A stretch of 64,000 bases of DNA from assembly GCF_013315695.1 (NCBI RefSeq), contig NZ_CP054353.1. One strand, written 5' to 3'. This document shows positions 58,171 through 58,222 of the stretch, one piece after another. The translations under genes were made by a program, and so were the position numbers. Origin of the DNA: Escherichia coli (GTDB taxonomy: Bacteria; Pseudomonadota; Gammaproteobacteria; Enterobacterales; Enterobacteriaceae). Below the pieces are notes generated by a model that was given only the letters and a program-made list of their open reading frames with translations, had not been told where the DNA came from and searched no databases. How positions within the stretch are numbered: the first letter of the stretch is position 1; each line of letters begins with the position of its first letter.

Positions 58171-58222
58171 TGATAAAAAAGCCGATGTCTGCAATGACAT
58201 CGGCTGTTGCCGTATAACGCGA

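Follow-up and report, generated by a model that had tools for sequence, protein, structure and literature searches.

The window, by which we mean the whole 64-kb stretch of Escherichia coli DNA that was analyzed, contains flhE, the final gene of the flagellar flhBAE operon, and argS, the gene of arginine-tRNA ligase, in convergent orientation (Table 1). The sole feature in the spacer between the two genes is a hairpin. As the stop codons are TAA at 58168–58170 for flhE and 58223–58225 on the minus strand for argS, the distance of 52 bp between the convergent genes that had been reported by an earlier, sequence-only reading of this DNA is exact. ArgS of the window and ArgS of E. coli K-12 share 99.5% amino-acid identity. 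Positions 59073–59222 within argS show 10–12 mismatches per 100 nt to K-12, compared with 0–6 in the remaining gene. This divergent patch is also present in an ST131 genome and in one further E. coli genome (L059), and it is probably a small recombination tract. An open frame of 498 aa on the plus strand (58289–59785), which runs antisense across nearly all of argS, is an automatic entry of the ORF tool and shows no sign of being a gene.

Table 1 Coordinates of the genes and features at the flhE–argS junction in the window.
Feature	Position	Strand	Description and basis
flhE CDS	57778..58170	+	130 aa; ORF list, Pfam FlhE PF06366 (E = 3.7e-41), RefSeq annotation of the near-identical genome MSB1_4I
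flhE–argS spacer	58171..58222	.	Exactly 52 bp; short, yecT-less form of a two-allele locus
Predicted argS terminator T-tract	58172..58179	-	TTTTTATC on the minus strand; read on the plus strand, an A-tract ahead of the hairpin; sequence and terminator scan
Predicted terminator hairpin	58180..58205	-	10-bp stem, 6-nt loop; terminator scan and fold statistics
Plus-strand tail after the hairpin	58206..58213	+	GTTGCCGT; degenerate T-tract for putative termination in the flhE direction; spacer comparison
argS CDS	58223..59956	-	Arginine-tRNA ligase, 577 aa; ORF list, RefSeq annotation of matching genomes

The hairpin is formed by the arms AGCCGATGTC (58180–58189) and GACATCGGCT (58196–58205), which enclose the loop TGCAAT (58190–58195). 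A scan of the minus strand for consensus terminators recovered this element with ten pairs, six of which are G-C, and with the tail TTTTTATCAT. Folding of the hairpin in its 71-nt context yielded −23.9 kcal/mol for the plus strand (z = −4.9) and −21.6 kcal/mol for the minus strand (z = −4.2), and none of 200 dinucleotide-preserving shuffles folded as well. The earlier description of a single palindrome between the two genes is in agreement with these data.

On the minus strand, the hairpin begins 17 nt past the argS stop codon, and the stem is directly followed by the T-run TTTTTAT. Hence, argS has just downstream of its stop codon what defines an intrinsic terminator, namely a stable, GC-rich stem-loop with a U-rich tract immediately 3' of it, and the predicted hairpin is a standard intrinsic (Rho-independent) terminator for this gene. 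The RNA hairpin and the U-run would release RNA polymerase 17–35 nt beyond the stop codon of argS, an essential gene. On the plus strand, where the hairpin begins 9 nt past the flhE stop codon, a run of six A residues lies ahead of the hairpin, and the tail behind it (GTTGCCG) is weak because of a T-to-G change at position 58207. The 13-nt arms of the window are 92% complementary. Since an A-tract precedes the hairpin on this strand, read-through from the flhBAE operon is probably also stopped or dampened, and termination on the flhE side would be less efficient in the subtype of the window, in which one T of the plus-strand tail is now a G. The bidirectional terminator proposed by the sequence-only reading was therefore only partly borne out: the hairpin is of the terminator type and strong for argS, whereas the flhE-side tail is interrupted by the G at 58207. 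While termination on either strand is deduced from the nucleotide sequence, a two-way function seems reasonable for the locus as a whole, appears weaker on the flhE side in the window subtype, and must be regarded as uncertain for the window itself in view of the poor plus-strand tail (GTTGCC).

We compared seven short alleles of this junction, which originated from the window, MSB1_4I, an ST131 genome, two genomes with other E. coli subtypes (L059 and L060), Escherichia albertii (L006), and a non-coli Escherichia lineage that is labelled E. coli SCPM-O-B-8794 (L004). The nine core arm positions GCCGATGTC/GACATCGGC were invariant in all seven alleles, while the loop and the 3' flank varied; the spacers of E. 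albertii and L004 share the core arms with the window and differ from it in their loops and 3' flanks. The sequence GGCTGTTG was found in the window, MSB1_4I and the ST131 genome, GGCTTTTG in L059, L060 and E. albertii, and GGCCTTTG in L004. The plus-strand tail of the window is shared with ST131 and is replaced by TTTTGCCG in L059 and L060 and by TTTTGTAG in E. albertii. Position 58207 is a G in the window, ST131 and MSB1_4I, whereas E. albertii and the remaining E. coli short alleles have a T. The flanking A4 and U4 stretches of L059 and E. albertii pair and extend the stem to 13 bp. Such a symmetric arrangement of A-tract and T-tract is the design expected of a two-way terminator, and it seems to have been kept in these relatives and degraded in the window by the G at 58207. 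The natural T/G variant at this position offers a ready-made test of the weight of the U-tract in two-way termination. The short alleles also differ at the very end of flhE, where two stop codons stand in tandem in the window (TAA TGA, 58168–58173). The TGA at 58171–58173 is the older stop: E. albertii (CAG TGA) and L004 (CAA TGA) use it and have one residue more in FlhE, and the change from CAA to TAA, which shortened FlhE by one residue, is present in all E. coli short alleles examined.

In K-12 MG1655 (L001), 784 bp separate flhE and argS, and yecT and yecV are annotated in this interval. The statement of the sequence-only reading that K-12 carries yecT at this position was thus correct, and the K-12 comparison does reveal additional sequence. 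The yecT gene of K-12 comprises 489 nt (162 aa), lies on the same strand as argS, and is named "lysozyme inhibitor LprI family protein" in RefSeq, consistent with a match of its product to Pfam LprI PF07007 (DUF1311; E = 1.1e-17). The small protein gene yecV (14 aa) lies on the strand opposite to yecT and argS, and its end overlaps the left arm of the argS terminator. A tblastn search with K-12 YecT detected no YecT-like coding sequence in the whole 64-kb window (best E = 3.8), and no PF07007-type ORF lies between flhE and argS of the window, where the gap measures only 52 bp. Across the spacer, K-12 and O157:H7 differ by 3.6%.

The window and K-12 were compared by anchored manual alignment and by local alignment, as global alignment with MAFFT put the gap in the wrong place. 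Within the K-12 spacer, each short spacer aligned best with the A-tract and the first part of the stem of the argS terminator (ATAAAAAAGCC-GAT, L001 2623–2637), at a score that only 5–8 of 500 shuffles attained. As all local matches fall on the K-12 argS terminator, we conclude that the extra ~730 bp of K-12 sit between the flhE stop codon and a positionally equivalent terminator. Another K-12 segment (1941–1966, AAAAAGGCTCGATGTCTTGTTGCAAT) was considered as a remnant of the left hairpin arm of the window and was rejected, because its likeness to this arm hinges on the loop TGCAAT, which is specific to the window, and is less pronounced in two other long alleles (L003 and L005), and because the best local match is the K-12 argS terminator instead. 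When the K-12 spacer was searched for repeats, neither a target-site duplication nor mobile-element ends of a convincing kind turned up. The only candidate was an exact 11-bp direct repeat, TGTGAATTATC, with one copy at the 3' end of flhE (L001 1878–1888) and one at the 3' end of yecT (2007–2017). The two copies are 129 bp apart, and chance would yield ~0.09 such pairs over this length.

The distribution of the two spacer forms was determined across 5426 complete E. coli genomes. The short junction, searched with a 132-bp query at a coverage of ≥80%, was present in 1782 genomes including ST131 and JJ1887. The 784-bp spacer of K-12 matched 3642 genomes (3554 of these at ≥80% coverage), among them K-12, O157:H7, O55:H7 and O111:H8. 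Together, the short junction and the yecT block account for 5424 of the 5426 genomes, which makes flhE–argS a clean two-allele locus and a two-state marker that splits the complete E. coli genomes about 1:2. We take ST131 to belong to phylogroup B2, K-12 to A, O157 and O55:H7 to E, and O111:H8 to B1. Some long alleles have decayed: strain N25 carries an IS1 insertion, TW14425 retains half of the yecT gene, and truncated or partial YecT forms appear among the database protein names of Shigella flexneri. These decayed and partial alleles demonstrate that yecT is dispensable.

To extend the comparison beyond E. coli, loci were collected with FlhE from one genome per species, which resulted in 4 Escherichia and 52 non-Escherichia loci (56 in total); none of them was recognised as coming from the type strains of E. 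fergusonii, E. marmotae or E. ruysiae or from E. coli clade I. Within Escherichia, both spacer forms occur. E. albertii has the short form with a 55-bp spacer that is homologous to the spacer of the window, and a 55-bp short form is also found in L004, a lineage with about 93% identity to E. coli in argS and about 90% in flhA. The long allele is present in E. whittamii (L005) and in Escherichia sp. E1V33 (L003), whose yecT genes share 95.7% and 97.1% nucleotide identity, respectively, with yecT of K-12. No YecT homologue lay closer than 3.5 kb to flhE in any of the 52 non-Escherichia loci. Many of these loci have about 3 kb between flhE and argS. Judged by eye from the translations, this interval presumably contains genes of a 527-aa transporter-like protein and a 379-aa GH88-like hydrolase in Citrobacter sedlakii (L009 4112–6839). 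In Salmonella diarizonae (L008 4154–7219), the hydrolase-like gene presumably recurs, with a 623-aa PBP2-like gene behind it. These interval genes were lost in Escherichia. Furthermore, yecT is more similar between Escherichia species (95.7–97.1% to K-12, L001 2013–2501) than the flanking flhA, flhE and argS (90–94%). This non-clock-like divergence hints at an exchange of the block between Escherichia lineages or species.

On balance, we regard the short spacer with its predicted terminator hairpin as the short form of a two-allele locus that is old within Escherichia, with yecT and yecV never received by the lineage of the window (probability about 0.75). That yecT was gained within Escherichia, with the window keeping the older state, is likewise probable, albeit slightly less so. 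The yecT block has a GC content of 39%, compared with about 53% in flhE and argS, and its edges are sharp. This foreign-looking composition, the absence of the block outside Escherichia, and its position between the flhE stop codon and the argS terminator lead us to favour an old insertion over a loss. Further support for a gain comes from E. albertii, which is generally placed as an early-branching Escherichia and has the short allele with the conserved stem, from the short alleles, which contain no yecT remnant, and from a foreign-type regulation of the gene. Expression of yecT is activated by BglJ-RcsB and moderately de-repressed in the absence of H-NS/StpA, and the gene is thus regulated like silenced foreign DNA (PMC3950696). 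In the scenario that we propose, some ancestral Escherichia would have gained an AT-rich block of ~730 bp by insertion between the flhE stop codon and the argS terminator. This block would have brought yecT with its own promoter and a downstream, T-run-flanked hairpin that may be the yecT terminator, with yecV located between yecT and the argS terminator. Both alleles would later have been sorted and exchanged among lineages by recombination. Divergence beside the indel is only mildly raised, with 5–8 mismatches per 100 nt in flhE and 1–3 at the 3' end of argS, so that the flanks bear no strong mark of two very old haplotypes, which weighs against full certainty of this scenario. A divergence peak around the indel had been considered as a mark of ancient haplotypes; this idea was dropped, as the rise in flhE is mild and none is seen at the argS 3' end.

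The direction of the event, a gain rather than a loss, is our interpretation of these patterns, and the opposite direction deserves consideration. An Escherichia ancestor could have possessed yecT and yecV between flhE and argS and lost them through a single deletion; inherited or passed on by recombination, the resulting short allele would now be found in E. albertii, in L004 and in about one third of E. coli. This would account for the presence of yecT in the majority of E. coli and in two or more further Escherichia species, and it fits the dispensability of the gene and its decay elsewhere (N25, TW14425 and S. flexneri). A-runs at both ends of the block (L001 1898–1905 and 2624–2630) could have mediated a microhomology deletion, and these junctions fit an insertion and a microhomology-mediated deletion equally well. 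A single old deletion that was spread by recombination would also yield the same allele distribution. However, joining the flanks of the long allele does not simply recreate the short allele, whose loop, stem interior and 3' spacer are unlike the argS terminator of K-12. Moreover, the foreign composition of the block, its absence at this locus from each of the 52 relatives examined outside Escherichia, and the short form of E. albertii argue against an ancestral yecT. A loss in the lineage of the window, which the sequence-only reading had offered as one of two options, is therefore the less likely alternative, to which we assign somewhat less than a one-in-four share of belief, and the older, yecT-less state remains our preferred explanation of the short spacer.

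The palindrome might also be a copy of a dispersed REP/BIME-like repeat or part of a small RNA gene instead of a dedicated terminator. REP elements start with GCCGGATG, which the motif GCCGATG loosely resembles. The hairpin 26-mer has a single copy in the 64-kb window even if up to three mismatches are allowed (0 expected), and the number of places that the short-junction query matched in an E. coli genome had a median of one. A search of positions 57700–58400 against Rfam returned no family match at E ≤ 1. Together with the location of the hairpin 17 nt past the argS stop codon and the T-run that follows it, these results render a repeat or small RNA highly improbable. The other option of the sequence-only reading, a lineage-specific acquisition of yecT in K-12, and likewise one in laboratory lineages, draws on nothing beyond the comparison of K-12 with the window. 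It is refuted by the occurrence of the block in E. whittamii, in Escherichia sp. E1V33 and in 3642 of the 5426 complete E. coli genomes, which represent many hosts and serotypes.

Relatives of YecT were few in a collection of 5.8 billion proteins and consisted of E. coli and Shigella sequences with ≥83% identity, followed by a small group with ~60% identity. Two members of the latter group could be located on contigs (L062 and L063), and both lie inside type VI secretion system (T6SS) clusters. The gene order in L063 (389–7543) is VgrG, a 761-aa protein (2755–5040) in which a phage-lysozyme-like pesticin domain scores 28.2 bits at a cut-off of 25.8, a 124-aa LprI protein, the YecT-like protein, PAAR, a 386-aa protein, and a 1014-aa product without a Pfam hit that runs off the contig end. 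This cluster is not present in E. coli genomes. In L062 (917–11384), a 967-aa CHAP-domain protein is followed by four small ORFs, the YecT-like protein, PAAR, the 386-aa protein, TssM and TssA. Hence, in both clusters the YecT-like gene lies immediately upstream of PAAR and of a conserved 386-aa protein without a Pfam match. These closest relatives of YecT outside Escherichia are thus found downstream of a pesticin-like or CHAP-domain protein, both of them effectors of the cell-wall-degrading kind. DUF1311/LprI proteins have been reported as T6SS immunity proteins (PMC12135965), and Etsi4 of EHEC is such a DUF1311/LprI T6SS immunity protein (PMC12981562). A protein with 99.4% identity to E. 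coli YecT is encoded at positions 3328–3813 of NZ_CP069927.1, a 5069-bp "plasmid" of Klebsiella oxytoca, and this copy could represent a contamination, a mis-assembly or a rare mobilised copy. The matches to "plasmids" comprised four records, two of which are chromosome-sized or megabase replicons, and they were not taken as evidence for plasmid carriage of yecT.

The long-allele yecT thus combines effector-adjacent homologues, immunity proteins within its family, and an orphan copy without an effector, and from this context and its family it may be an orphan T6SS immunity gene that is confined to the long allele. A more far-reaching version is that yecT protects against a muramidase-type effector of competing Enterobacterales, and that the polymorphism is kept by fluctuating selection and recombination between lineages and not by neutral sorting. 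We consider this version speculative and rather improbable. The higher identity of yecT between species (95.7–97.1%) than of its flanks (90–94%) would fit it and suggests that the block was exchanged between Escherichia species. If it were true, lineages with the short allele, such as that of the window and ST131, would be sensitive to the respective effector. In any case, the T6SS context of the YecT relatives provides a testable function for an uncharacterised gene of K-12.

Nothing in the locus goes beyond known types of components, and many RefSeq genomes are annotated with this arrangement. The finding holds but is unremarkable: the region in the window is an ordinary, predicted convergent-gene terminator, and the absence of yecT is a common accessory-gene polymorphism as seen in any E. 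coli pan-genome. With intrinsic and two-way terminators in general, the hairpin has in common a GC-rich 10-bp stem, a short loop, a T-run on the argS strand and a preceding A-tract, as well as a location within a very short spacer between convergent genes, a few nucleotides past the stop codon of either gene. It differs from two-way terminators in its flhE-side T-tract, which is interrupted (GTTGCC) and makes the element asymmetric. The flhE-yecT-yecV-argS locus of K-12 has the same flanking genes in the same orientation as the window, and its argS terminator, with an A-tract and a stem that starts with GCC, occupies the same relative position. K-12 differs from the window by ~730 bp of extra sequence, which includes yecT, a T-run hairpin downstream of yecT that adjoins flhE, and yecV, and by the stem of its argS terminator (AAGCCTGATC/GATCAGGCTT). 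Finally, YecT belongs to the same Pfam family (PF07007) as the DUF1311/LprI immunity proteins of T6SS, such as Etsi4 of EHEC and the partner of a lysozyme-like effector of Pantoea. Unlike these immunity genes, yecT of K-12 stands alone between flhE and argS, with neither an effector gene nor T6SS genes nearby.
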